Assembly (NCBI GenBank): GCA_964612685.1 | Contig: CAZTCF010000001.1 | Location: forward strand, 83,399-147,398 | From: Candidatus Woesearchaeota archaeon | GTDB taxonomy: Archaea; Nanobdellota; Nanobdellia; Pacearchaeales; GW2011-AR1 | Length of the DNA stretch: 64,000 bases | Direction: 5' to 3' | Part shown: one piece after another, positions 5,814-57,199 of the stretch | Layout of the letters: every line of letters starts with the position of its first letter | Position numbering within the stretch: the stretch's first letter is position 1 | Made by a program: the position numbers and the translations under genes | Notes under the pieces: generated by a model | The model's input: the letters and a program-made list of their open reading frames with translations, nothing else | Told to the model about the DNA's origin: nothing | Databases searched by the model: none

Positions 5814-8183
5814 ATGGTAGAAGCAAATTCAAGTTCAAAGTTTGACTTTAAGCATATTGAAGATAAGTGGAAAGAATTTTGGGAAAAGGAAAAAATATAT
5901 GCTGCAGATTTAAAGAAAAAGAAGGTTTATTCTTTAGATACTCCTCCCCCCACAGTTTCGGGAGCAATGCATATTGGACATGTATTTAGTTATTCTCAGC
6001 AGGACTTTATTGCTAGATTTCAAAGGATGTATCTTGCAGATAGAAATGGATGTGTATTCTATCCTTTTGGAACTGATGACAATGGATTGCCTACAGAAAG
6101 ATTAGTTGAAAAGATGAATAATACCAAAAGTAAAGATATGTCAAGAGAGGATTTCATTAAGCTTTGTTTAAAAACACTTAAGAATATTCTTCCAGATTTT
6201 GTACGGGATTGGAAAAATCTGGGGATTTCTTGTGACTATACTGTTTCTTATTCTACAATTGATGATAATTCTAGAAAGGTTTCTCAAAAATCTTTTCTTG
6301 AATTGTACAAGAAAAAAGATATCTACAAAAAAGAATTCCCCACAATATGGTGTCCAGAATGTCAGACTTCCATTGCCCAAGCAGAACTTGAGGATAAAGA
6401 AGAAAAAAGTTTATTTTCAACTTTGAAATTTTCATGTGGAAGAAAAGATTTACTTATTGCAACAACCAGACCAGAACTTTTAGGTGCATGTGTTGCTGTT
6501 TTTGTTCATCCTGCTGATAAGAAGTATAAATCCTTTGTAGGTAAGAATGCTAAAGTTCCTTTATTTGATTATGAAGTACCAATTATCGCGGACACATCTG
6601 CAGATCCTGATAAAGGAACGGGTGCTTTGATGGTTTGCTCTTATGGAGACAAATATGATGTTGACGCAATAAACAGATATAAATTGATTCCTAGATTAAT
6701 TATTGATAAATCTGGAAAAATAAATTTTGGAGAATATAAAGGATTAAAAGTTAAGGAAGCCAGAAAAAAAATTCTTGAGAATTTAAAAAAAGAAAATTTA
6801 ATTGTTGAACAAAAAGAAATAACCCATGTAGTTAATTGTCATGATAAATGCGGGACTCCTATCGAATTTGTAACAACAGCACAATGGTTCATAAAAATTC
6901 TTGATAAAAAAGATAAATTCATTGAACAAGGAAATAAAGTTAAATGGTATCCTGAGTTTATGCATAAGAGATATGATAATTGGGTAAATGGTTTGGAATG
7001 GGATTGGAATATTTCTAGGGAGAGACATTTCGGGGTCCCTATTCCGGTTTGGGAATGTAAACAATGTGAAGAGATAATCTTAGCAGAGGAGAAGGAATTG
7101 CCTATTGATCCTTTACAGTCAAGGAAAAAATGTCCTAAGTGTAAATTAGAAGCTAAACCCGAAGAAAAAGTATTAGATACTTGGGCAACTTCCTCATTAA
7201 CCCCTCAACTTGCATCTTATTTAGTTAATGGGAAAGTTGTAGTTCCATATTCATTGAGACCACAAGCTCATGATATAATAAGGACTTGGGCATTTTATAC
7301 TATTGTTAAAAGTTATTTGCATGAAAATAAAATTCCTTGGGAAGATATTGTTATCTCAGGAAATGTTTCTTTAGGGGGAGAAAAAATGTCTAAAAGCAAA
7401 GGTAATGTTATTGATCCTAAATTGGTTTTAGAAAAATATGGGGCGGATGCTATGAGATTTTGGTCTGCAGGAAGTAAACTTGGAAATGATTTGGATTATC
7501 AGGAAAAAGATTTAATTACTGGAACAAAGATGATAAACAAATTGATTAATGCTTCAAAATTTGTTTTTATGAATCTTAAAGATTATAATCCTAAAAGTAA
7601 ACCTCACAATCTTGAGAAGCTTGATGAATTCTTTTTGGATAAGCTTAATGTTCTTGTTGAAACGTGTACGGAAAGTTTTAAGGAGTACGAATATTCTAAA
7701 GCTAAATTGGATGTTGAAAGATTTTTCTGGAGTGATTTTTGTGATAACTATCTTGAGATTGTAAAAAAGAGAGTTTATCAGGGAGAAGGAAATGCAAAAC
7801 TTTCTGCACAATACACTTTGTATCATTCCTTGCTTGTAATTTTAAAGTTGGTTGCCCCTATAATCCCATTTATAACTGAGGAAATTTATCAAGAATATTT
7901 CAGAAAAAATGAAAAAGAAAAATCAATACATATATGTTCTTGGCCAGAATCAGAAAAAGCTGAAGATAAAAATCATATAAAGATATTAGAGAGACTTTAC
8001 TTTATTATATCACAGGTTAGGCAGGAAAAATCTCTTAATAAAAAGGCAATGAATGCCGAAATTGTTTTGACCTTAACTAGAGAGGATTATGAAGAAATAA
8101 AATCTGTTCTTGGGGATTTAAAAAATGTTTCAAATGCTAAAGCAATAAGGGAAGGAAAGAAGTTTGAGGTTGAGTTTTTGTGA
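5814..8183 (+). CDS. valS: Valyl-tRNA synthetase
   Basis: Class I HIGH motif (PPPTVSGAMHIGH) and KMSKS motif (EKMSKSKGN). Archaeal ValRS-type blocks: TTRPELL, DPDKGTGALMVCSYGD, WNISRERHFGVPIP. Confidence 0.8.
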   Translation: MVEANSSSKFDFKHIEDKWKEFWEKEKIYAADLKKKKVYSLDTPPPTVSGAMHIGHVFSYSQQDFIARFQRMYLADRNGCVFYPFGTDDNGLPTERLVEKMNNTKSKDMSREDFIKLCLKTLKNILPDFVRDWKNLGISCDYTVSYSTIDDNSRKVSQKSFLELYKKKDIYKKEFPTIWCPECQTSIAQAELEDKEEKSLFSTLKFSCGRKDLLIATTRPELLGACVAVFVHPADKKYKSFVGKNAKVPLFDYEVPIIADTSADPDKGTGALMVCSYGDKYDVDAINRYKLIPRLIIDKSGKINFGEYKGLKVKEARKKILENLKKENLIVEQKEITHVVNCHDKCGTPIEFVTTAQWFIKILDKKDKFIEQGNKVKWYPEFMHKRYDNWVNGLEWDWNISRERHFGVPIPVWECKQCEEIILAEEKELPIDPLQSRKKCPKCKLEAKPEEKVLDTWATSSLTPQLASYLVNGKVVVPYSLRPQAHDIIRTWAFYTIVKSYLHENKIPWEDIVISGNVSLGGEKMSKSKGNVIDPKLVLEKYGADAMRFWSAGSKLGNDLDYQEKDLITGTKMINKLINASKFVFMNLKDYNPKSKPHNLEKLDEFFLDKLNVLVETCTESFKEYEYSKAKLDVERFFWSDFCDNYLEIVKKRVYQGEGNAKLSAQYTLYHSLLVILKLVAPIIPFITEEIYQEYFRKNEKEKSIHICSWPESEKAEDKNHIKILERLYFIISQVRQEKSLNKKAMNAEIVLTLTREDYEEIKSVLGDLKNVSNAKAIREGKKFEVEFL

Positions 8184-8231: not shown

Positions 8232-9320
8232 ATGGCAGCTATGAGTAAAGATGCGTTAGAATCGCTATTAGAAGAGCTTGAAAGTCACAAAGGTAGACAC
8301 ACAGAATTAATTACAGTATATATTTCAGCAGGATATGATATTGTTTCGGTTCAGAAGCAGCTGGAGGCAGAAAAATCTACAGCTAAAAATATAAAATCCA
8401 CTTCGACAAGAAAGAATGTTGTAGACGCTTTAGATAAGATTGTTAGGTACATAAAGGATTTTAAGGGAAATCCTGAAAATGGGCTTGCTATCTTTTGTGG
8501 AAATGTTTCAAAAGTAGAGGGACAGGATGATTTACAATTATGGAGTGTTGAACCTCCTTTGCCTTTAAAGATTAGACTTTATAGGTGTGATAAGGATTTT
8601 GTTTTGGAACCATTAAGAGAGCTTTTAGAAGTATCCGAGATTTTTGCTTTGTTGGTTATGGATAGAAAAGAAGCTACAATAGGTGTTCTTGAAGGGAAGA
8701 GAATAGAAATTCTCCAAAAAATGACATCTGGGATTCCCAGTAAAGTACGTGCAGGGGGACAATCAAGCCAGCGTTTTCATAGGATAACCGAGGGTTTAAC
8801 TAAAGATTTTTATAAAAGAATTTCAGATGAGATGAAAAATTTATTTTATGAGAATAAAAAGTTGAAAGGTATATTAATTGGAGGCCCAATTCCAACTAAA
8901 GACGAGTTTATTGATGACGAATATCTACCAACTATTTTAAGAAATAAGATTATAGGAAGGGTGGACATAGGTGGAAGTGATGAATCTGGACTTAAGGAGT
9001 TGGTTGAGAAATCACAGGATATTCTTGCGAGTCAAGAAATTGTTTATGAGAAGAAACTTATGGAGAAGTTTTTCAATACTCTTGGTTCAAAACCAGATTT
9101 TGTGGTGTATAAACAAGATTCTGTTAAAAAAGCACTCGAATATGGTGCAGTTGATACCTTACTTTTATCTAAAGAATATGATAAATCCCTCGCAAAGGAA
9201 TTGAAGAAAATTGCAGATGAGAATGGAACCAAGGTTGAGCTGGTTTCGACAGATACGGAAGAGGGCAAACAATTTTTTCAGTTGTCTGGAGTTGGAGCTT
9301 TATTAAGGTATAAACTTTAA
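8232..9320 (+). CDS. prf1: Peptide chain release factor aRF1
   Basis: NIKS stop-recognition motif (TAKNIKSTSTRKN) and GGQ motif (RAGGQSSQRF). Confidence 0.9.
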   Translation: MAAMSKDALESLLEELESHKGRHTELITVYISAGYDIVSVQKQLEAEKSTAKNIKSTSTRKNVVDALDKIVRYIKDFKGNPENGLAIFCGNVSKVEGQDDLQLWSVEPPLPLKIRLYRCDKDFVLEPLRELLEVSEIFALLVMDRKEATIGVLEGKRIEILQKMTSGIPSKVRAGGQSSQRFHRITEGLTKDFYKRISDEMKNLFYENKKLKGILIGGPIPTKDEFIDDEYLPTILRNKIIGRVDIGGSDESGLKELVEKSQDILASQEIVYEKKLMEKFFNTLGSKPDFVVYKQDSVKKALEYGAVDTLLLSKEYDKSLAKELKKIADENGTKVELVSTDTEEGKQFFQLSGVGALLRYKL

Positions 9321-9832
9321 AATATCTTTATTATTTTATTTGGTATTATAGAAGAATCTTCGCAATGATATACTTTATGGGTTAGCTGATTAAAGAAACC
9401 TTTTAATCTTAAATTATTTTTTTTTATTAAGCTTTTATTTTCTTTATTTATTTTTAACTGTGGAGGTTTGAATGTGGTGGGAGAGAAATCAAAACATTTT
9501 TCAAATTCATATATTCCAAAATCTAAATCTTCCTGAGTGATTTCTTTGTATAAGAATTCTCTATAAGTATGATTTATTCCATGCAGGTAAAGTTTTTTCT
9601 CTAGCGATAAGATAGATTCACACCATTCCTTATTTTCTGATATAAGATTATTGTTATAATTTGGGATTACATAAAGTATATCTGGATTATATTTTTCTAT
9701 TTCTGGACAGGATATTCCAGGAGTTATATCATCAATTTCTGTTGGATTAATCAACCTTATTAGAAATAATAATATTAAGAGAGTTAATATTGAAAAAAAT
9801 ATTGCTTTTCTTATATTTCCTCTTTTTTTCAT
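9317..9832 (-). CDS. Membrane-anchored hypothetical protein (possibly DUF2334/deacetylase-like)
   Basis: N-terminal TM helix. The LHGINHTYREF block loosely resembles DUF2334. It sits at the edge of the glycosylation cluster. Confidence 0.3.
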   Translation of the reverse strand: MKKRGNIRKAIFFSILTLLILLFLIRLINPTEIDDITPGISCPEIEKYNPDILYVIPNYNNNLISENKEWCESILSLEKKLYLHGINHTYREFLYKEITQEDLDFGIYEFEKCFDFSPTTFKPPQLKINKENKSLIKKNNLRLKGFFNQLTHKVYHCEDSSIIPNKIIKIF

Positions 9833-49620: not shown

Positions 49621-49637
49621 TATGCCCCGATAGTTCA
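49621..49637 (+). repeat. 17-nt direct repeat: an upstream duplicate of the tRNA-Glu 5' end (partner at 49672-49688)
   Basis: tatgccccgatagttca occurs twice, 51 nt apart. The upstream copy continues as ...GAAC.TCTCGG but has no anticodon arm or 3' half. Confidence 0.8.
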
Positions 49638-49642
49638 AAAGA

Positions 49643-49651
49643 TATAAATAT
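49643..49651 (+). promoter_or_regulatory. Putative TATA box of tRNA-Glu
   Basis: atataaata is centred ~28 nt upstream of tRNA position 1 (49675). Confidence 0.4.
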
Positions 49652-49674
49652 CTAGAACTCTCGGAATAACTTAT

Positions 49675-49846
49675 GCCCCGATAGTTCAGAGGCCAAGAAC
49701 GCCACCCTCTCAAATCATGCCGGAGTTCAATCGATGAGATAATAATTCCAGCCTTCTCTAAGGCAGGCTAGTTAGTTTTATCGCCTTATATTTTCTTAGG
49801 GCGATGGAGTACGGTGGTAACCCGAGTTCGAATCTCGGCCGGGGCG
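49675..49846 (+). tRNA. tRNA-Glu (anticodon CUC) interrupted by a ~99-nt intron at the canonical 37/38 position
   Basis: Exon 1 is 49675-49712: acceptor GCCCCGA, D arm GTTC/GAAC, anticodon stem CCACC, loop CTCTCA. Exon 2 is 49812-49846: C, GGTGG, TAAC, T arm CCGAG-TTCGAAT-CTCGG, acceptor CCGGGGC, discriminator G. A bulge-helix-bulge is present: CTCT (49707-10) pairs with GGAG (49806-09), flanked by the 3-nt bulges CAA (49711-13) and TAC (49810-12), and ATC (49714-16) pairs with GAT (49803-05). There is one A:C mismatch at 7:66. Confidence 0.75.
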
Positions 49847-49854
49847 TTTATCCT
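49836..49854 (+). repeat. Left copy of a perfect 19-nt direct repeat (att-like), covering the last 11 nt of tRNA-Glu plus 8 nt
   Basis: cggccggggcgtttatcct is identical at 57136-57154, exactly 7,300 bp away. Confidence 0.9.
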
Positions 49855-49990
49855 TAGGTTTAACATAGCTATATAAAACGAATAATTCTGCGTAGAAATG
49901 ATGCAGTTTTTGAACAGAGAGGTGAAATAAATGGTTTGGTGCTTAGAAAGGGAGGTGAACTAGTTAAATTCTTAAAAGCTAAACAAAATA

Positions 49991-50000
49991 TTTATAAATT
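49991..50000 (+). promoter_or_regulatory. Putative TATA box for the island operon
   Basis: tttataaatt lies ~25 nt upstream of the ATG at 50020. Confidence 0.35.
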
Positions 50001-50019
50001 ACATATATATCTAATATAT

Positions 50020-50172
50020 ATGCCTAAAAAGCAGATAATTGTAAAATTTGAGGGGTCTGAGATTCTTGAGAGAAAAGCTTCTAAGTTTGGAACTGGTGCT
50101 CATGTAATTATTCCTAAAGAATACATAAACAAAAAAGTAAAAATTATTATGGAGGATGAAGATGACAAGTAA
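50020..50172 (+). CDS. DUF2080-like / AbrB-type small protein
   Basis: The ATG at 50020 gives MPKKQIIVKFEGSEILERKASKFGTGAHVIIPKEYINKKVKIIMEDEDDK. The pattern (V.F.G.E..E....K.G....V.IPKEWIGKKVKII) matches my recollection of archaeal DUF2080, described as a putative transposon-encoded protein. It overlaps the giant ORF start by 17 nt. Confidence 0.5.
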   Translation: MPKKQIIVKFEGSEILERKASKFGTGAHVIIPKEYINKKVKIIMEDEDDK

Positions 50173-53100
50173 AAAGTATTTTTTTGCTTTAATCAGCATA
50201 ATTTTGATAACACTCTTATCCTATGAGGTTTTAGCAGGGACTAATGTTCCAGATTGTGGAATAACAATCAATATCTCAGGACAATATGAATTAAACGCGG
50301 GAATTTCTGGGACAGCAACTTGTCTAACAATTAATACAAGTAATATAGAACTAGATTGCAAAGGAAATACTATTTCTTATGGTTCAGATGGAGTTAATGG
50401 AAGAATTGGAATATCTGTTGCCCTTGGAACAGTTTATCTTGAAAATATCACAATAAAAAATTGCATAATTCAAGACACAAATCCTGCTGGAACCACGGGG
50501 TATGGAATATATGCATTAAGAACATCTAATTCATATATAATTAACAATACAATTAATACAAGCGGAACTGCTACAAATCACGGGATTTATTTATCTACTG
50601 CAAGTCAAAATAATCTTCTTGAAAATAATACCATAAATGCTTATGGAAGCACTACAGGAAACTATGGGATTTATTTAATTTATCAATCAAATAATAACAC
50701 AATTAGAAACAATGAAGTAAAGGCAACAGGAACAACAACAAGCTATGCACTCATGCTTTATAGCTCAGAATATAATTTAATAGAAAACAACAATTTTTCA
50801 AGTTACACTCTTTTAACAACAGGAAATTCAGATATGAATGTAGTTTATTTATACTATGGTTCAAGATATAATATTTTAAGAAATAATTACATTTATTCAG
50901 ATGCTGAAGCAAGAAATTACCATATTTATCTAAATTTAAATAATAATTATAATATCATTGCAAATAATACTATAATTCCAAATGATGATGAAGGAACAAA
51001 CCCTGGAATTTATATTCTTGGTTCTGATTACAATCTTGTAGAGAATAATACCATTAGAACAAATGGAACAACAGCCAATTATGGGGTTTGGTTAGGAGCA
51101 TCTTCAACAGGAAATATGATTAATAAAAATAATATTATCACAAATGGAACTACAACCAACAATTACGGAATTTATTTGGTAAGTGCACTTTACAATAATA
51201 TAACAGAAAATCAGATCTCCTCAAATGGATTAACAACAGGTAATGCAGGAATAACTTTATCAAGTGCCCAAAGAAATTACCTTGCAAGAAATAATATTTC
51301 TACAAGTGGGACAACAACAGGATATGGAATTTATTTGACTGGTTCTGATTATGACACAGTAGAAGATAATGATATTTCTACATTTGGAACAAGCACTGCA
51401 AATGATGGAATCTATTTAATCTCTTCTACAAACAATAACATAATAAACAACAGAATAACTGCAAATAGCACCTCTTCTGGAAATATTGGTATTGCTTTAT
51501 ATACCTCAACAGGAAATTCTTATGTTTATAATAATACTATAAAAACTGATGGAACAACTACAAATTATGGTATTTTATTACAGACTGCAAATAATAATTC
51601 GATAGTAAATAATCAAATATCAACCAGTGGAACAACTACAACAAATCATGGAATTTATCTTTATATAAGTGCAAATGCAAACAAAATCTACTATAATAAT
51701 ATCTCTACATATGGCACAACAACAAATCATGGGATTTCACTTAGCACAACTTCAGATGGAAATGAAATTGTTGGAAATTATATAATAGCTAATGGCTCAA
51801 CAACAGCCTCCGCAACAACAACAAATAATTTTGGAATTGCTGCTGCTACAAGTTGTTATAATAATCTTATGGAAAATAATACAATACTAAATTCCGGAGG
51901 AAGGTATAACTATGGTATATATATTTCAGTAGAATCTGGATATTCTACAATTAGAGGAAATAATATTACTACTGGAGGAAGTGGGGCCACAAATGCAGGA
52001 ATTTATCTTTCAGAAAGCAGAAACAACCTTCTAGAAGAAAATATAATCTCTACTTCAGGTTCTGCTACAGATTACGGTATTTATCTGTATTCTAATGCAA
52101 AATATAATTTTGTTAAGAAAAATAATATTACAACCTCAGGAAGTACTAATTCTTATGGAATTCTTCTTGATGCAGTAATTCCAAACTTCCCCCACAATAA
52201 TTCTTTTCAAGAAAATAATTTTATTAGTATTGCTGGAACAGAATTTAGATTTGCTGATGCAGAAATAGATGAAAATTATTTAATTAGCCAGATTATTGAC
52301 AGTTACTTATTTACTGGAATTGGAAGCAAAATGATTGTTAGAAATGACTCTGCAGGAGAAATAAAATTCTTAGATAGATTAACTGGTTCTGGAACAGGAT
52401 TTAGTGATGATGTATACATTTTAGAGAATTATGCTTTTATTGATTCGAGTATCCCAGGATTAAACAAGTCAGCAGAGATAACCATTTATAATTTACCAAC
52501 AACTTCAAATGAATTACAAATTTACAGGAATGGTATAATCTGCAGTGATTGTTTTAATTTAACTTCAATGCAAGCAGGAAATGTAACATTTAATGTAACA
52601 CAAGGAGGAGGATACTCAATTAATTCCTCAAGTTCATCTCCTTTAATAGAATTAGATTTCCCTGAAAATGATTATTTAACAAATCAGCAAAATATTAATT
52701 TTAATTTTACAGCTAGAGATGATTCTGTAGGAGATTTAAATTGTAGCATTTATATTGATTCTATTTTAAATCAAACCAATTCAACAACTCAAAATAATAC
52801 TCTAACTAATTTTGCTGCTAGTGGATTAACTGAAGGAAATCATAACTGGAATATTGAATGTTTTGATTCAGCAGGAAATAGAAATATTTCTGAAACAATA
52901 AATTTTACAATAACAATTTCACAATCATCCTCATTATTTAATTATCCAGAGAATAAATCTTATTTTAATAATTTAGACTTTATATTGTTAAATTATACTG
53001 TTTTAGATTTAGATTTAAAGATAATGACTGCTTGGATTTATGGGGATGAAATTCTTCTAAATACAACTTCAGGATTAACTAATGGTTCATCTTTAGTTTA

Positions 53101-56100
53101 CAATTGGACAAGTTTAGATTTAGGACAATATAACTGGTCTATAATAATCTGGAATGGAATAAAGAACTCTTCTATTGAATATTCTTACTTTAATAATATT
53201 AATTTAACAATAAATTGTGAAGCAGGAGGAGATTATCTTGAAGATCCAACTGTTTTAATTCAAGGAAGAATAAATGACAGTAGCGGGATAGTTTCATTAA
53301 GTTCACAAATAATTAATATTTCTATTTACAATGATTCCACAGAGGAAATAATCACTTCTTCAAATATAACCACAGAATCAAATGGTGTATTTAATAGTAT
53401 ATTTCCTGGATTGGAAATAGGAAATTACACTGTTTATACAAAAGTTAATTATCAAGGAATTGAAATAAATAGTTCAGACTCATTTAAAATTTCTCTTGGA
53501 TATGAAGCAGGTTACAATGCAGGATTTATTGCTGGAAATGAATCAGGATATATTTCTGGATTTGATTATGGTAATATCACAGGATTTAATTTAGGAAATA
53601 TCACAGGATTTATACTTGGAAACAATACTGGTTTCACATTAGGAAATACAACTGGATTTGTATACGGTAACCTCACAGGATTTGTTTTAGGAAATTCAAC
53701 TGGTTACATTTTAGGTAATGCAACTGGATTTACATTAGGAAATTATACTGGGTTTATATTAGGAAATCAAACAGGATTTATAATAGGAAATATTTCAGGT
53801 TTCAATCTTGGTAATTCAACCGGTTTTACACTTGGAAATTATACTGGATTCATATTAGGAAACATTTCAGGATTCTACTTTGGAAACCAGACAGGTTATA
53901 CTACAGGTTACAATGCAGGATTTATTGCTGGAAATGAATCAGGATATATTTCTGGATTTGATTATGGTAATATCACAGGATTTAATTTAGGAAATATCAC
54001 AGGATTTATACTTGGAAACAATACTGGTTTCACATTGGGCAACTCAACTGGTTATACCTTGGGATTTAACACAGGTAATATAACCGGATTTACTCTAGGT
54101 AATACTACCGGCTTTGTATACGGAAATAATACTGGTTATATTTTAGGATTTAATACAGGCAACTTAACAGGCTTCACATTAGGAAACACAACTGGCTTCG
54201 TTCTTGGCAACTCTACAGGTTATATTTTAGGTAATGCAACTGGCTTTGTATATGGTAACACAACAGGATTCATATTAGGAAACACAACGGGATTTGTATA
54301 TGGAAATATCACTGGATTTGCTTTGGGTAATTCAACAGGATTTACACTTGGAAATTTAACAGGTTATATTCTTGGAAATCAAACAGGTTATAACGCAGGA
54401 TTCAGCACAGGAAACACAACTGGATTTAATCTAGGAAATACTACAGGTTTCACATACGGAAATCTTTCAGGATTTGATCTAGGTAATGCCACGGGTTATA
54501 CCTTGGGTTATAATGCTGGTGTTAATGTTAGCAATCGCACTTCAGCATCCCTAGTCTTGGATAAGATTGCAAGTTTGCAAAATATAACAAATGGAACTAT
54601 TTCATATAATGTAACTTTAAGATTAACAAACAAAGGAGGAAGCAATTCAACAAATGTTAACATAACAGATTTAGATTATGGTTCTAACTTTACAATTGGA
54701 AATTTAACAGCAGGAGAATCAATTACAAGAAGCTATCTTATTAATTTCACAAGAAATATGACAACATATTCAAATGCAACATCAATTGCTCATGCATATG
54801 GTATTGATTCTTATTCATCTGGACAAATTTTGGCAAACTCTAGCTCAATGAATTTACCTGTCCCATCAAATGAATCTGGGCAGCAATTAACTTTGATTAA
54901 GAATGTATTTTATATTAATCAAACATTCACAGATGTAAATTATACTGTTAGTTTTGAAGTTATTAATTCCGGAGGATCAGATTTAACAGGGATTACAATA
55001 ATTGATGACGATTTGGGTATTTCTGATGTAATAAGCTTGAGTAAAACACAAAGTTATACCTACTCGGGATCATTAATAATATCTAAGAATCAGGATAATA
55101 AAGAGCAAATATTTTCAATAGCAAGAGGAACTGTAAATGCTGTTATTTATTCTTCAAATCAAATAAAAGTTTTAATTCCAGGATATGGTGGAGGTCCAAA
55201 TGATGTAAGCATTAATGCTCCTACATCTGTTTTTAATAACACCAATTTCAATGTGGATATAACTGTGAAGAATAAAAATAAAGACATAGGCCAGGACTTT
55301 GTTGTAACTTATTGGCTCTTGAGCAATGACGAGATTTCAATATATTCAACTGGAGCTCAAACTCTTTATGTTGGAGGAAATGATAATACCAATGCAACTA
55401 CAATTGTATTCTTATCTCCTGCAATTAATGGAACATATAAAATAAGGGCAAATGTGAGCGGAACAGGAGTAAGTGTTCAAGCTACTGCTTTTTCAACAAT
55501 TCTTGTTACGTATCCTTCAAATGAAACTGCAAATGAAACTCCAGTAAATCCTCCGCACGGAGGAGGTGGAGGTAGCAGAATAAGCTGTGTATATATCTGG
55601 GAGTGTGGTTCTTGGAGCCTATGTGCAGATGATGGAACTCAATCAAGAACATGTACTAATACAGGAACCTGTACAGGAATAGAAGGAAAACCAGCAGAAA
55701 AAATGAATTGCTTAGAGGTTTCTTCTGATATTGTATTAAAATTAAGTCAATTAAATTTAACTGAAAATCAAAGTTTAGAATTTAATATTGATTTGATTGA
55801 GAAGAAATCCTATGAAAACAAAGATATACAGATAACATATTCTATCTTTAATAAAACAAATATAGAGGTATTCACTAAAACAGAGACTCGTTCACTTGAG
55901 ACAAATATAAGTTATAAGGAGATTTTGGATGAATTAATGCTTACTCCAGGAGAATATACATTAAAAGTACATATATTCTATGGCAACTCTCAAAGTTCAG
56001 AAGAGGTACAATCATTTATTATAAAAGAAGAAGGTAAAAATAATATTGGAAGTAAATTACTTCTTGAGTTAACACCCGAAACAAATTTTTTAACTTACTT

Positions 56101-56365
56101 GGCAATATTTGTAATCCTTATCTTATTAATATCGCTGTTTGTGATTATGAAAAAGAAGAGAGATGTTGATGAAGTTGACTTATTGATAAAAGAAGGAAAA
56201 AGGAATATTGACAATGAAAATTTTGATGAAGCATTAGATGTCTATCCTGTTCTTAAGAGCTTATATAAACACAAATATAAAGGGGACCCATCTGCTTATG
56301 AAAAGATTACTTCTTACTCTCAATTTATTTTAAAAAGTATTAAGGATAAATTAAAAAAAGACTAG
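50156..56365 (+). CDS. Giant (2,069 aa) membrane-anchored surface protein: parallel beta-helix repeats, beta-sandwich modules, GNxTGFxL sequon array, Cys-rich module and C-terminal TM anchor
   Basis: Signal-like N-terminus (KKYFFALISIILITLLSYEVLAG; alternative ATG at 50162 after GGAGG). Roughly two dozen ~22-aa PbH1-type repeats (NNTI.T.GT.T.NYGIYL) lie at ~50340-52260. The GNxTGFxL array is at 53498-54520. CARDB/DUF11-like segments lie at ~54540-55500. The Cys module is at 55586-55711. The TM helix FLTYLAIFVILILLISLFVIM (56087-56149) is followed by KKKR and a ~70-aa tail. Confidence 0.85.
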   Translation: MKMTSKKYFFALISIILITLLSYEVLAGTNVPDCGITINISGQYELNAGISGTATCLTINTSNIELDCKGNTISYGSDGVNGRIGISVALGTVYLENITIKNCIIQDTNPAGTTGYGIYALRTSNSYIINNTINTSGTATNHGIYLSTASQNNLLENNTINAYGSTTGNYGIYLIYQSNNNTIRNNEVKATGTTTSYALMLYSSEYNLIENNNFSSYTLLTTGNSDMNVVYLYYGSRYNILRNNYIYSDAEARNYHIYLNLNNNYNIIANNTIIPNDDEGTNPGIYILGSDYNLVENNTIRTNGTTANYGVWLGASSTGNMINKNNIITNGTTTNNYGIYLVSALYNNITENQISSNGLTTGNAGITLSSAQRNYLARNNISTSGTTTGYGIYLTGSDYDTVEDNDISTFGTSTANDGIYLISSTNNNIINNRITANSTSSGNIGIALYTSTGNSYVYNNTIKTDGTTTNYGILLQTANNNSIVNNQISTSGTTTTNHGIYLYISANANKIYYNNISTYGTTTNHGISLSTTSDGNEIVGNYIIANGSTTASATTTNNFGIAAATSCYNNLMENNTILNSGGRYNYGIYISVESGYSTIRGNNITTGGSGATNAGIYLSESRNNLLEENIISTSGSATDYGIYLYSNAKYNFVKKNNITTSGSTNSYGILLDAVIPNFPHNNSFQENNFISIAGTEFRFADAEIDENYLISQIIDSYLFTGIGSKMIVRNDSAGEIKFLDRLTGSGTGFSDDVYILENYAFIDSSIPGLNKSAEITIYNLPTTSNELQIYRNGIICSDCFNLTSMQAGNVTFNVTQGGGYSINSSSSSPLIELDFPENDYLTNQQNINFNFTARDDSVGDLNCSIYIDSILNQTNSTTQNNTLTNFAASGLTEGNHNWNIECFDSAGNRNISETINFTITISQSSSLFNYPENKSYFNNLDFILLNYTVLDLDLKIMTAWIYGDEILLNTTSGLTNGSSLVYNWTSLDLGQYNWSIIIWNGIKNSSIEYSYFNNINLTINCEAGGDYLEDPTVLIQGRINDSSGIVSLSSQIINISIYNDSTEEIITSSNITTESNGVFNSIFPGLEIGNYTVYTKVNYQGIEINSSDSFKISLGYEAGYNAGFIAGNESGYISGFDYGNITGFNLGNITGFILGNNTGFTLGNTTGFVYGNLTGFVLGNSTGYILGNATGFTLGNYTGFILGNQTGFIIGNISGFNLGNSTGFTLGNYTGFILGNISGFYFGNQTGYTTGYNAGFIAGNESGYISGFDYGNITGFNLGNITGFILGNNTGFTLGNSTGYTLGFNTGNITGFTLGNTTGFVYGNNTGYILGFNTGNLTGFTLGNTTGFVLGNSTGYILGNATGFVYGNTTGFILGNTTGFVYGNITGFALGNSTGFTLGNLTGYILGNQTGYNAGFSTGNTTGFNLGNTTGFTYGNLSGFDLGNATGYTLGYNAGVNVSNRTSASLVLDKIASLQNITNGTISYNVTLRLTNKGGSNSTNVNITDLDYGSNFTIGNLTAGESITRSYLINFTRNMTTYSNATSIAHAYGIDSYSSGQILANSSSMNLPVPSNESGQQLTLIKNVFYINQTFTDVNYTVSFEVINSGGSDLTGITIIDDDLGISDVISLSKTQSYTYSGSLIISKNQDNKEQIFSIARGTVNAVIYSSNQIKVLIPGYGGGPNDVSINAPTSVFNNTNFNVDITVKNKNKDIGQDFVVTYWLLSNDEISIYSTGAQTLYVGGNDNTNATTIVFLSPAINGTYKIRANVSGTGVSVQATAFSTILVTYPSNETANETPVNPPHGGGGGSRISCVYIWECGSWSLCADDGTQSRTCTNTGTCTGIEGKPAEKMNCLEVSSDIVLKLSQLNLTENQSLEFNIDLIEKKSYENKDIQITYSIFNKTNIEVFTKTETRSLETNISYKEILDELMLTPGEYTLKVHIFYGNSQSSEEVQSFIIKEEGKNNIGSKLLLELTPETNFLTYLAIFVILILLISLFVIMKKKRDVDEVDLLIKEGKRNIDNENFDEALDVYPVLKSLYKHKYKGDPSAYEKITSYSQFILKSIKDKLKKD
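53498..54520 (+). repeat. In-frame 24-nt (octapeptide GNxTGFxL) tandem repeat array inside the giant ORF
   Basis: About 40 consecutive units. By my count, about 37 carry an N-x-S/T sequon (NIT, NTT, NST, NAT, NLT, NYT, NQT, NIS, NES). Confidence 0.9.
53508..53640 (+). repeat. Perfect 133-nt internal duplication (partner at 53904-54036)
   Basis: Base-by-base comparison shows identity from caggttacaatgc... to ...ggtttcacatt. The offset is 396 nt (132 codons). The flanking bases differ on both sides. Confidence 0.9.
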
Positions 56366-56383
56366 TTTTCATAGATAAATATC

Positions 56384-56411
56384 ACTAAGTTAAACCTTAA
56401 GTTGGATTTAC
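56384..56411 (+). repeat. Left copy of a 28-nt direct repeat flanking the RelE-like cassette
   Basis: actaagttaaaccttaagttggatttac compared with actaagttaaaccttaggttgaatttac at 57109-57136: 26 of 28 identical. Confidence 0.8.
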
Positions 56412-56474
56412 AATTGATAAAAAGAAACATTTAAATAGTAATATCATTTGATATTATAGTAATTTCGTGTTAAA

Positions 56475-56786
56475 ATGGAAACTCAAATAGTAAAAAAGAA
56501 TAAAAGTTACATTGAAACAAATGATATAGCTAGAAGCCCAACACTTCAAACAGTCCTTATGGTTGAAAAATTCATAAAGGATAATTCAGGAGAATACAAA
56601 AAAACAGATTTATTCAAAAATCTCCCAAAAAAAGTAATGTGGCAAACTTTTCAGGTTATAATGGAGTATTTAGAAGAGAATTTGAGGGTAGCTTATGATA
56701 ATGAAGGATACATTGTTTATATCTGGAATCCAGAGTTTGTGGAGAGATTCAGAAATAAACCAGAATTAGAATGGAATGCAAAGTAA
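56475..56786 (+). CDS. Hypothetical protein, putative antitoxin/partner of the RelE-like gene
   Basis: 103-aa ORF that overlaps the downstream toxin-like gene by 16 nt. It has no classical RHH/AbrB motif and may be a winged helix. Confidence 0.35.
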   Translation: METQIVKKNKSYIETNDIARSPTLQTVLMVEKFIKDNSGEYKKTDLFKNLPKKVMWQTFQVIMEYLEENLRVAYDNEGYIVYIWNPEFVERFRNKPELEWNAK

Positions 56787-57091
56787 ATTTTATTGATTTG
56801 GAATTGAAGAATGCCTTTGAATATTTAGAAAAATCAGATCCAAGACTCTTCAAAGAGGTAAATAAAGCAATACAAGAAATATGCCAAAATTCTTTTTGTG
56901 GAAGAAATGTAAAGAAAAAATTAATTCCTAAAGAGCTTGTTCAAAAGCATAAAATAGACAATCTTTGGATTTATAACTTGAGGAAAGACTGGAGACTTTT
57001 ATATTCTGTTGGTAGAGACGAAATTGAACTTATAGCAGTTATTCTTGATTGGATGGATCATAAAGATTATGAAAAATTATTCAAATTCTAA
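56771..57091 (+). CDS. RelE/ParE-superfamily toxin-like protein
   Basis: The C-terminal pattern NLWIYNLRKDWRLLYSVGRDEIELIAVILDWMDHKDYEKLF parallels archaeal RelE (LYR.R.GDYR.IY.V....I.IL.I..R..AY). Confidence 0.55.
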   Translation: MECKVNFIDLELKNAFEYLEKSDPRLFKEVNKAIQEICQNSFCGRNVKKKLIPKELVQKHKIDNLWIYNLRKDWRLLYSVGRDEIELIAVILDWMDHKDYEKLFKF

Positions 57092-57108
57092 ATTTTAACC
57101 AATCTGTT

Positions 57109-57136
57109 ACTAAGTTAAACCTTAGGTTGAATTTAC
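57109..57136 (+). repeat. Right copy of the 28-nt repeat, abutting the right 19-nt att-like repeat
   Basis: See 56384-56411. Its last base (57136) is the first base of the 19-nt repeat. Confidence 0.8.
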
Positions 57137-57154
57137 GGCCGGGGCGTTTATCCT
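57136..57154 (+). repeat. Right copy of the perfect 19-nt direct repeat (tRNA-Glu 3' fragment)
   Basis: cggccggggcgtttatcct is identical to 49836-49854. No tRNA body lies upstream of it. Confidence 0.9.
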
Positions 57155-57199
57155 CCTTTTATAGGATAAATATAAAAGTTTAATTTGTGTAAAATTCTA

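Follow-up and report, generated by a model that had tools for sequence, protein, structure and literature searches.

An integrase-less, CIME-like island at the 3' end of a tRNA-Glu gene in a Woesearchaeota archaeon and a candidate element for its mobilisation

Cis-mobilisable elements (CIMEs) retain both attachment sites, attL and attR, and have no genes for integration or transfer (PMC5704250). Integrase-less islands bounded by attachment (att) sites and stacked by accretion are already known in bacteria, and tandem integration is known in archaea. Here, an island of this type is described in a 64,000-nucleotide stretch of Candidatus Woesearchaeota archaeon (assembly GCA_964612685.1, contig CAZTCF010000001.1, positions 83,399 to 147,398 of the forward strand), and "the window" below means this whole stretch. 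Segment 49847-57146 of the window is probably a non-autonomous, CIME-like integrative island at the 3' end of a tRNA-Glu(CUC) gene, built by fusion of two cassettes and most likely moved by the integrase of a 16-kb element.

The CIMEs of the ICESt1/ICESt3 family of Streptococcus thermophilus resemble this island in lacking integrase and transfer genes, in having att arms related to those of an integrase-bearing element at the same site, and in forming tandem arrays through re-use of that site. The present case differs by its archaeal (DPANN) host, by a partner element without recognisable conjugation genes, by an XerA-like integrase with a zinc ribbon and by a right arm that mimics a tRNA T-arm. 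Its arrays, seen in loci L025, L058, L081 and L085, hold many very small cassettes (0.5-2.3 kb), and cis-mobilisation of an integrase element and island in tandem was not observed among them. The ssrA islands of Dehalococcoides (PMC3146451) are likewise a diverse family in the 3' end of one small RNA gene, with strain-level diversity and a near-identical cargo island recently gained by different strains; their target is the bacterial transfer-messenger RNA and 16 of 31 have their own integration module, whereas the island described here has none. Archaeal integrative plasmids and proviruses (PMC8371274, PMC6563490) share with the present system the use of tRNA genes, the direct repeat of the tRNA end, a non-partitioning tyrosine integrase (the gene is intact inside the candidate helper element) and tandem integration at one locus, and differ in that the island has no integrase of its own. 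The words DPANN, Woesearchaeota and Nanoarchaeota are absent from a 2021 review of archaeal tyrosine recombinases (PMC8371274).

In the literature, no description of such cassette arrays in DPANN archaea was found. Gene exchange and surface-protein diversification in these organisms are largely unknown, and the island bears on both. The genomes of DPANN archaea are tiny, and a life attached to other cells is assumed for them. A 7.3-kb unit with a surface protein of about 2,000 amino acids, near-identical across species that are about 20% apart in chromosomal DNA, is a concrete case of very recent gene flow, and a core of 11 nt in tRNA-Glu, a pair of defined arms and a specific integrase as candidate make its mechanism testable.

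The repeat and the interrupted tRNA-Glu gene

The repeat CGGCCGGGGCGTTTATCCT was found exactly twice in the window, at 49836-49854 and 57136-57154, with a spacing of 7,300 bp. No third copy was present in the window when up to 2 mismatches were allowed, and 100 shuffles gave 0 matches. These results agree with a first-pass annotation of the window, which had reported an identical 19-nt pair, and no such match is expected by chance. At the left copy, ARAGORN and Rfam called no tRNA on the unspliced sequence; the 5' half of one was recognisable from 49675, and in silico excision of a 99-nt intron (49713-49811) at the canonical position 37/38 yielded a 73-nt tRNA-Glu(CTC) at 49675-49846, ending at G49846, which ARAGORN recognised. 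The precursor was predicted to fold as a cloverleaf with a structured intron (z = -3.15), and the gene is kept in relatives. As had been claimed, and as the spliced tRNA bears out, the left copy consists of the final 11 nt of tRNA-Glu plus 8 nt of flank (49847-49854, the start of the element's left arm), and no tRNA body is attached to the right copy; the sequence before it, ...CCTTAGGTTGAATTTA, resembles a degenerate T-arm. The tRNA thus stays intact and a direct repeat of its 3' end bounds the island, which fits a tRNA-integrated genomic island. Because the 99-nt intron hides the target tRNA from standard finders, tRNA-based island predictors will miss such islands. The target and the island ends are as follows.

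49675..49846, + strand: tRNA-Glu(CUC), the integration target (attB side); exon 1 49675-49712, intron 49713-49811, exon 2 49812-49846 (splicing in silico, fold, conservation)
49836..49854, + strand: left repeat copy (attL); core 49836-49846(47), CGGCCGGGGCG(T) (repeat search, junction comparison)
49847..49962, + strand: left arm LE-A, with near-palindrome TTTATCCTTAGGTTTAAC, block ATAGCTAYATAAAACGAATAA and 2 copies of the motif GGTGAA(M)T(A)
57098..57135, + strand: type-1 right arm RE1, ACCAATCTGTTACTAAGTTAAACCTTAGGTTGAATTTA, a degenerate T-arm mimic abutting the core
57136..57154, + strand: right repeat copy (attR); core 57136-57146(47) (repeat search, junction comparison)

The near-palindrome of LE-A adjoins the core and, together with the block and the GGTGAA(M)T(A) motifs, is a candidate binding site for the recombinase or accessory proteins. 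A reading of the CCTTAGG motifs at both ends as an inverted repeat was dropped in favour of a direct repeat and T-arm mimic after more family members had been aligned.

Several further features of the tRNA-Glu gene were recorded. Its intron is highly conserved even where the acetate kinase of a relative is no more than 73-80% identical, includes a single compensatory pair (ATCGCC/GGCGAT to ATCACC/GGTGAT) and contains a CGAUGA stretch; at relaxed thresholds, Rfam returned only chance-level CRISPR-repeat matches in the tRNA and left-arm region. The 5' end of the gene has a 51-nt insertion (49621-49671), and a 17-nt repeat TATGCCCCGATAGTTCA, at 49621 and 49672, flanks a relic that retains the D-stem and an end resembling a T-arm. 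The window, L002-L004 and L022 have this insertion; it is absent from the close strain L077 and from L021, L038 and L043, and may be the scar of another event at the same tRNA-Glu. In other species, a LAGLIDADG-type open reading frame (ORF) of 221-321 amino acids lies between a DUF2061 gene and tRNA-Glu (L058, 39-704; L085-L090, about 6536-7501 or 8823-9788), and its open frame extends into the tRNA-Glu 5' exon.

Near-identical islands in divergent chromosomes

The locus was retrieved from many assemblies by exact-protein look-up with four flank and cargo proteins; all loci compared here are numbered with the prefix L. Species-level relatives, among them L021 (GCA_964482915.1) and L022 (GCA_964412025.1), were compared with the window, and the island identities were computed outside the internal repeat region of the large surface protein (adhesin). 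Samples holding the island include JGI 3300010355, 3300025871 and SRR8925812, and bins with identical islands include GCA_029560575.1 and GCA_964450075.1 besides those of L021 and L022. The island of the window was 100% identical in L021 and L025 and 99.9-100% identical in L022, and the part of it held in L028 was 99.6-100% identical, whereas the chromosomal flanks were only 76-84% identical to the window in L021 and L022 and 76-85% in L028; the L025 contig has no chromosomal flank. At the right junction, the identity stopped exactly at CGGCCGGGGCGT, and four unrelated sequences followed according to host, or a second cassette in L025:

Right junction, window and L020: TTTATCCTcc..., then a 2'-5' RNA-ligase-like gene
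Right junction, L021: TGATACAT..., then the DAC gene directly
Right junction, L022: TGAAACCC..., then a ligase homologue
Right junction, L028 and L029: TTGAACTT..., then a 137-aa membrane protein
Right junction, L025: a second cassette

At the left junction, the first 150 nt past the tRNA were identical in all these hosts, and LE-A was 100% identical across host species. The tRNA-Glu intron of L021 was 93.6% identical, with host-specific differences, and starting at the 3' end of the tRNA identity rose to 100%; in L022, the block of 100% identity takes in the whole tRNA-Glu and its intron. Since only 12 nt are common to the hosts at the right junction, homologous recombination and de Bruijn/k-mer mis-assembly are ruled out as the source of that junction. 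The junctions recur in independent JGI, ENA, Logan and NCBI assemblies. A seemingly different junction in L018 (1640-1928) was rejected as that of a chimeric contig, in which high-GC bacterial DNA is fused inside the 2'-5' ligase-like gene.

The end of the identity at 11-12 nt also indicates that the crossover took place in the core CGGCCGGGGCG(T) and not over the whole 19-mer. The additional bases are accounted for by L077, a 2-kb contig of a close relative with flanks 95-98% identical to the window, in which tRNA-Glu and core are followed by an 846-nt single-gene cassette with a different left end, a right-arm variant, the core and a flank starting with TTTATCCTCCTTTTATAGG... The octamer TTTATCCT (57147-57154 of the window) also stands in L077 behind this different cassette and is therefore the native flank of the host. 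It coincides with the first 8 nt of the element's left arm, hence the 7-8 extra repeat nt in the window, while the repeat is only 12-13 nt long in other hosts. The 19-nt repeat proposed as the att site is thus real, with a functional core of 11-12 nt and a remainder of host flank. A perfect 8-bp hairpin, TTTATCCT-ccttttat-AGGATAAA, was also seen in the host flank directly after the right core (57147-57170); it may serve as a terminator or be what is left of an earlier cassette arm.

Within one species, the tRNA-Glu site has three alternative occupants: the island, a 15,978-bp integrase element (L002/L084) and the 846-nt cassette of L077. The island is a discrete unit that has very recently been transferred between species. 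With a near-identical island in divergent flanks and a sharp boundary in the tRNA 3' end, the attL/attR interpretation of the first-pass annotation stands, and one of the options it had left open, a decayed element, is contradicted by the recent spread between species. The comparison of base composition that it had proposed was uninformative: the guanine-cytosine (GC) content is about 0.30 both inside and outside the island; donor and recipients are all low-GC DPANN.

The integrase-bearing element at the same site and competing explanations

Searches of the island cargo against Pfam revealed no recombinase, and a profile built from 80 members of the integrase family described below found no match (E <= 10) among six-frame ORFs of the whole 64-kb window, in keeping with the earlier statement that the island has no integrase. 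A split integrase of the SSV type (class I) at the island ends was rejected because no ORF of at least 50 amino acids crosses either repeat copy; the end-proximal island ORFs encode a DUF2080 protein and a putative YoeB-like toxin.

A candidate source of the missing enzyme is found in a conspecific strain (L002/L084, Logan SRR8925812_2502), whose left flank is 99.46% identical to the window over 10.6 kb and whose tRNA-Glu holds another element, which measures 15,978 bp from core to core. This candidate helper element encodes a 442-aa tyrosine integrase (P0001), a helix-turn-helix protein, a primase of the archaeo-eukaryotic type (AEP), a 595-aa protein, a resolvase, two DNA methyltransferases and HEPN proteins. 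Its att sites match those of the island at the same target, with the same core and both arms: the left arms are about 86% identical over 116 nt after the core, and the right arms (L084) are identical at 24/24 positions, AAGTTAAACCTTAGGTTGAATTTA. Of the options in the first-pass annotation, mobilisation in trans is accordingly the one favoured.

P0001 belongs to the Phage_integrase family of Pfam (6.5e-18). Its best NCBIfam match is archaeal XerA (107 bits against a cut-off of 220), its best match in the PDB is Pyrococcus abyssi XerA (4a8e), and it has a C-terminal zinc ribbon. The family is large, with 1,430 relatives, many of them annotated with a ribosomal-L40E-like zinc ribbon. Integrases 68-72% identical to P0001 adjoin the same left arm in L079, L081 and L091, so that the 116-nt arm stands beside an integrase gene in four integrase-bearing elements; by alignment, it is kept in 10 cassettes and integrase elements, some with a different core, and L091 begins within it. 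In the subfamily of L079 and L081, the core is TCGTGGGGGCG, unlike that of the island, and ARAGORN found no tRNA near these cores in either locus; the right ends of the integrase elements of L079, L081 and L082 lie beyond the DNA retrieved. An 18-nt palindromic block, TTAATCCTTAGGATTAAG, was observed as a direct repeat on both sides of the core TCGTGGGGGCG (L079, 9796-9845; L081, 7075-7124). PHROGs and Pfam searches of the helper's other genes returned no viral hallmark, the matches being HEPN, zinc-ribbon, methyltransferase, resolvase and primase only, and a viral collection contained neither the 19-mer CGGCCGGGGCGTTTATCCT nor a relative of the integrase. The L084 contig breaks inside the core and L007 breaks at the last base common to the left arms of island and helper, as in an assembly graph with both variants in one sample, which is a hint that the two coexist there.

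The acting enzyme and the circular intermediate we infer as follows. The island would move as one unit by site-specific recombination, in which the core CGGCCGGGGCG(T) that terminates the acceptor stem of the tRNA would be exchanged with the same core on a circularised element, where it would lie between the T-arm-mimicking right arm and the conserved 116-nt left arm. Integration of this kind would keep the tRNA intact and duplicate the core, and recombination between both cores would free a 7,300-bp circle and restore the empty site. The predicted circle junction is GGTTGAATTTACGGCCGGGGCGTTTATCCTTAGGTTTAAC (longer form ...CCTTAGGTTGAATTTACGGCCGGGGCGTTTATCCTTAGGTTTAACATAGC), and the predicted empty-site junction is GAATCTCGGCCGGGGCGTTTATCCTCCTTTTATAGG (longer form ...GTTCGAATCTCGGCCGGGGCGTTTATCCTCCTTTTATAGGATAAA). 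The likeliest recombinase would be the XerA-like P0001 integrase of the 16-kb plasmid-like element, or a close relative, acting in trans; alternatively, tandem accretion could be followed by transfer of the island in cis by the integrase element, a course described for CIMEs of bacteria (PMC5704250). Right arm and core (CCTTAGGTTGAATTTA|CGGCCGGGGCG) resemble the T-arm and acceptor strand of the tRNA (CCCGAGTTCGAATCT|CGGCCGGGGCG), so the recombinase probably sees similar half-sites on both partners, which fits an Xer-like enzyme acting on simple sites. The putative toxin-antitoxin pair of the island would plausibly stabilise it, and the adhesin may be its selectable cargo.

Several observations weigh against this proposal. 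The look-ups returned no circular junction for the island and no truly empty tRNA-Glu site for it in this species, and no contig carried an integrase element and the island in tandem. The left arms of island and helper differ at about 14% of positions, and the cassettes of L077 and L085 have other left ends, so recombination may not depend on the left arm. Neither capsid nor conjugation genes were recognisable in the helper, and no evidence of a route between cells was found. P0001 was present on a single contig, while the 103-aa protein of the island was present in 56 blocks of the collection. Moreover, the integrase search covered the 64-kb window and not the whole genome, and its window-wide profile represented the helper's family only.

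The strongest competitor, in itself unlikely, is a recombinase encoded by the host, either the XerA of the chromosome or an integrase of the same family that has become domesticated. Integrative mobile elements exploiting Xer (IMEXs), such as the CTX phage, have no recombinase of their own and are inserted at the chromosomal dif site by the host XerCD. The island is like them in being a mobile element without recombinase for which an Xer-type enzyme would be supplied from elsewhere. Such an explanation would draw on the Xer-like nature of the candidate integrase, simple-site recombinases of this kind being present on archaeal chromosomes, on the rarity of the helper element relative to the island, and on the use of the same core by cassettes with different left ends, which suggests that a T-arm-like arm and the core suffice. 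The island differs from IMEXs, however, in that its site is a tRNA 3' end and not dif, and in that the best candidate enzyme lies on another mobile element. The presence of its 116-nt arm beside an integrase gene in four elements points instead to a shared, element-specific system, and the 64-kb window holds no recombinase of the helper family.

It is highly improbable that the island is an immobile remnant left by loss of its integrase, with the repeat as a mere scar. Both cores and both arms are intact, at least three host species with flanks 76-84% identical share the island at 99.9-100% identity, and it is followed by at least four different right-hand flanks. These observations have to be set against the missing integrase, the internal core-less fusion scar and the decayed versions found elsewhere (L085/L086 with a degenerate right core CGGCTTGGATG, L038 without left arm), as well as against published cases of integrated plasmids of archaea that lost the integrase gene after integration (PMC8371274). 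The island showed no trace of integrase or replication genes; its arm homology is compatible with decay from an integrative and conjugative or integrative and mobilisable element and does not prove it.

Exchange of a variable region between conserved flanks by homologous recombination after DNA uptake, with no site-specific step, is extremely improbable. The tRNA gene could act as a conserved left anchor, as the identical block of L022 with its entire tRNA-Glu and intron would allow, but the right side offers only 12 shared nt between hosts and leads into different downstream genes, the L021 sequence passes from a 93.6% identical intron to 100% identity at the tRNA 3' end, and the pair L085/L086 (see below) shows a precise insertion with core duplication. 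Finally, the notion that the island is autonomous, with the DUF2080 protein (annotated as "transposase-associated") or the 103-aa protein (without family match) being or recruiting a new tRNA-targeting recombination machinery, is hardly credible, since known recombinases are far larger than either protein, neither is present in sibling cassettes that share the ends of the island (L058, L085), DUF2080 is coupled to the adhesin gene even in L038, which has lost the att arm, and the 103-aa gene forms a standard overlapping pair with the YoeB-like toxin gene.

Island cargo and tRNA-anchored cassette arrays

The cargo of the island is arranged as follows.

50020..50172, + strand: DUF2080 small protein, 50 aa (Pfam PF09853, E 6.7e-6; NCBIfam NF033496)
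50156..56365, + strand: 2,069-aa surface protein (adhesin; Pfam and repeat analysis)
56387..56410, + strand: internal type-1 right-arm relic without core, AAGTTAAACCTTAAGTTGGATTTA, 22/24 match, directly after the adhesin stop
56475..56786, + strand: 103-aa putative antitoxin, no family match; 16-nt overlap with the toxin gene
56771..57091, + strand: 106-aa RelE/YoeB-like putative toxin (weak matches)

The adhesin contains an N-terminal signal/transmembrane segment, beta-helix/NosD repeats, an immunoglobulin-like domain, GNxTGFxL repeats and a C-terminal transmembrane anchor. The GNxTGFxL region has a 24-nt period (53500-54500 of the window), and the protein is 1,935, 2,069 or 2,207 amino acids long among otherwise identical island copies, indicating that the repeats expand and contract faster than point mutations accumulate. 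For the 106-aa ORF, the matches to Pfam YoeB (2.1e-5; 24.9 against a cut-off of 27 bits) and ParE (1.5e-4) were below the curated cut-off, as was that to TIGR02116 (4e-4; 20.4 against 51.8 bits); YoeB 2a6q in the PDB gave E 0.0019.

The first-pass annotation had listed the DUF2080 gene, the 2,069-aa protein and the RelE-like gene as cargo, and all three are present; they do not form a single unit. The island is a fusion of two cassettes, one with DUF2080 and the adhesin and the other with the putative toxin-antitoxin pair, and the core-less right arm at 56387-56410 is the fusion scar between them. The DUF2080 gene is paired with a large beta-helix protein also in L038 (72% and 38% amino acid identity, respectively; after tRNA-Glu, with no left arm) and in L085-L090, while the toxin-antitoxin pair occurs as a separate cassette behind a different ORF in L043 (96% and 95% amino acid identity). 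The core-less junction and the sequence upstream of the toxin-antitoxin pair recur as in the island in L043 and L085/L086. A further widespread species has, at this tRNA, a diverged DUF2080-adhesin-toxin-antitoxin unit (70-79% nucleotide identity) whose right core is degenerate. Given these diverged and decayed versions in other lineages, the unit is old, and the window holds a copy that is intact and spreading at present.

The DUF2080 stop overlaps the start of the adhesin gene, consistent with translational coupling. Its family had been noted as one described as transposon-associated; as a mobility gene it was rejected, being coupled to the adhesin gene even without the att arm (L038), and its presence is no sign of transposition machinery. 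In a study of toxin-antitoxin networks (PMC10440598), a DUF2080 domain was validated as an antitoxin, and the name "transposase-associated" is an annotation legacy.

The tRNA-Glu locus is a general hot spot at which small cassettes without an integrase stand in arrays. When species-representative genomes were scanned for the T-arm of the tRNA joined to the core, 24 loci in Woese-, Pace- and Nanoarchaeota bins were returned; beyond the tRNA, these showed left arms of related sequence (L052, L058), a second or third core, and relics like a degenerate T-arm. Integrase-less cassettes with a core at each boundary were found in tandem arrays in L025, L058 (3 cores), L081 (3 cores), L052 and L043. 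In L058, the three cores bound two small cassettes, of which the second (cassette B) ends in the right arm of the island, and the array is followed by the same 137-aa gene as the island in L028 and L029; in L081, three cores stand in a row with the integrase element last; L043 and L052 are decaying arrays. Variants of the right arm also occur in L077, L085, L043 and L052.

The clearest record of an insertion at the core is provided by L085 and L086, whose flanks are 99% identical and which differ by a 2,287-bp cassette without integrase, inserted in one of them precisely at the core. The cassette carries a peptidase S51 gene, an AdoMet-synthase-like gene and a 177-aa ORF, is bounded by a perfect 11-nt duplication and ends in an island-type right arm, so that L085/L086 are an occupied/empty pair for a sibling cassette of the island. 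The empty site that the first-pass annotation had suggested looking for is thus represented in the family, for this sibling, and not for the island itself in its own species.

These arrays resemble those of integrons, in which small integrase-less cassettes, toxin-antitoxin cassettes among them, each end in a recombination site and the enzyme is an Xer-related tyrosine recombinase. Unlike integrons, they have no fixed platform of integrase, attI and promoter: their neighbours are the tRNA and housekeeping genes, and the integrase sits in the mobile 16-kb unit, itself a member of the array. The sites appear to be a tRNA-derived core plus arm rather than attC hairpins, the array is anchored in a tRNA gene, and the cassettes appear, from their sequence, to carry promoter-like regions of their own. 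Integron-integrase models scored far below cut-off on the helper integrase. We tentatively suggest, as a possibility that we hold with less than even confidence, that Woesearchaeota and their DPANN relatives have an integron-like cassette exchange anchored in tRNA genes, in which small integrase-less cassettes, each ending in a T-arm-mimic arm plus the last 11 nt of the tRNA, are stacked, shuffled and transferred from species to species; the enzyme would be an XerA-like integrase with a zinc ribbon, itself carried as a cassette of the array. If so, the cassettes exchanged would include surface adhesins, the probable points of contact with the host cell.

A metagenome search with the left-arm variant pattern gave no match. 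A search with the core plus TTWATCCT gave 19 loci, 17 of which were chance matches in high-GC bacterial DNA and two of which, L067 and L077, were relevant. The right arms were of two kinds, the T-arm mimic and a hairpin-like type (L058, L081). A second kind of cassette end, ...ACTTTTTGTTATA...GTGTAACAC.../cataaaaagtRtRAYAC, was observed in L077 (about 1570-1530, reverse strand), L058 (3120-3151) and L081 (7560-7607 and 9770-9815), standing before the core in L058 and L081 and after it in L077.

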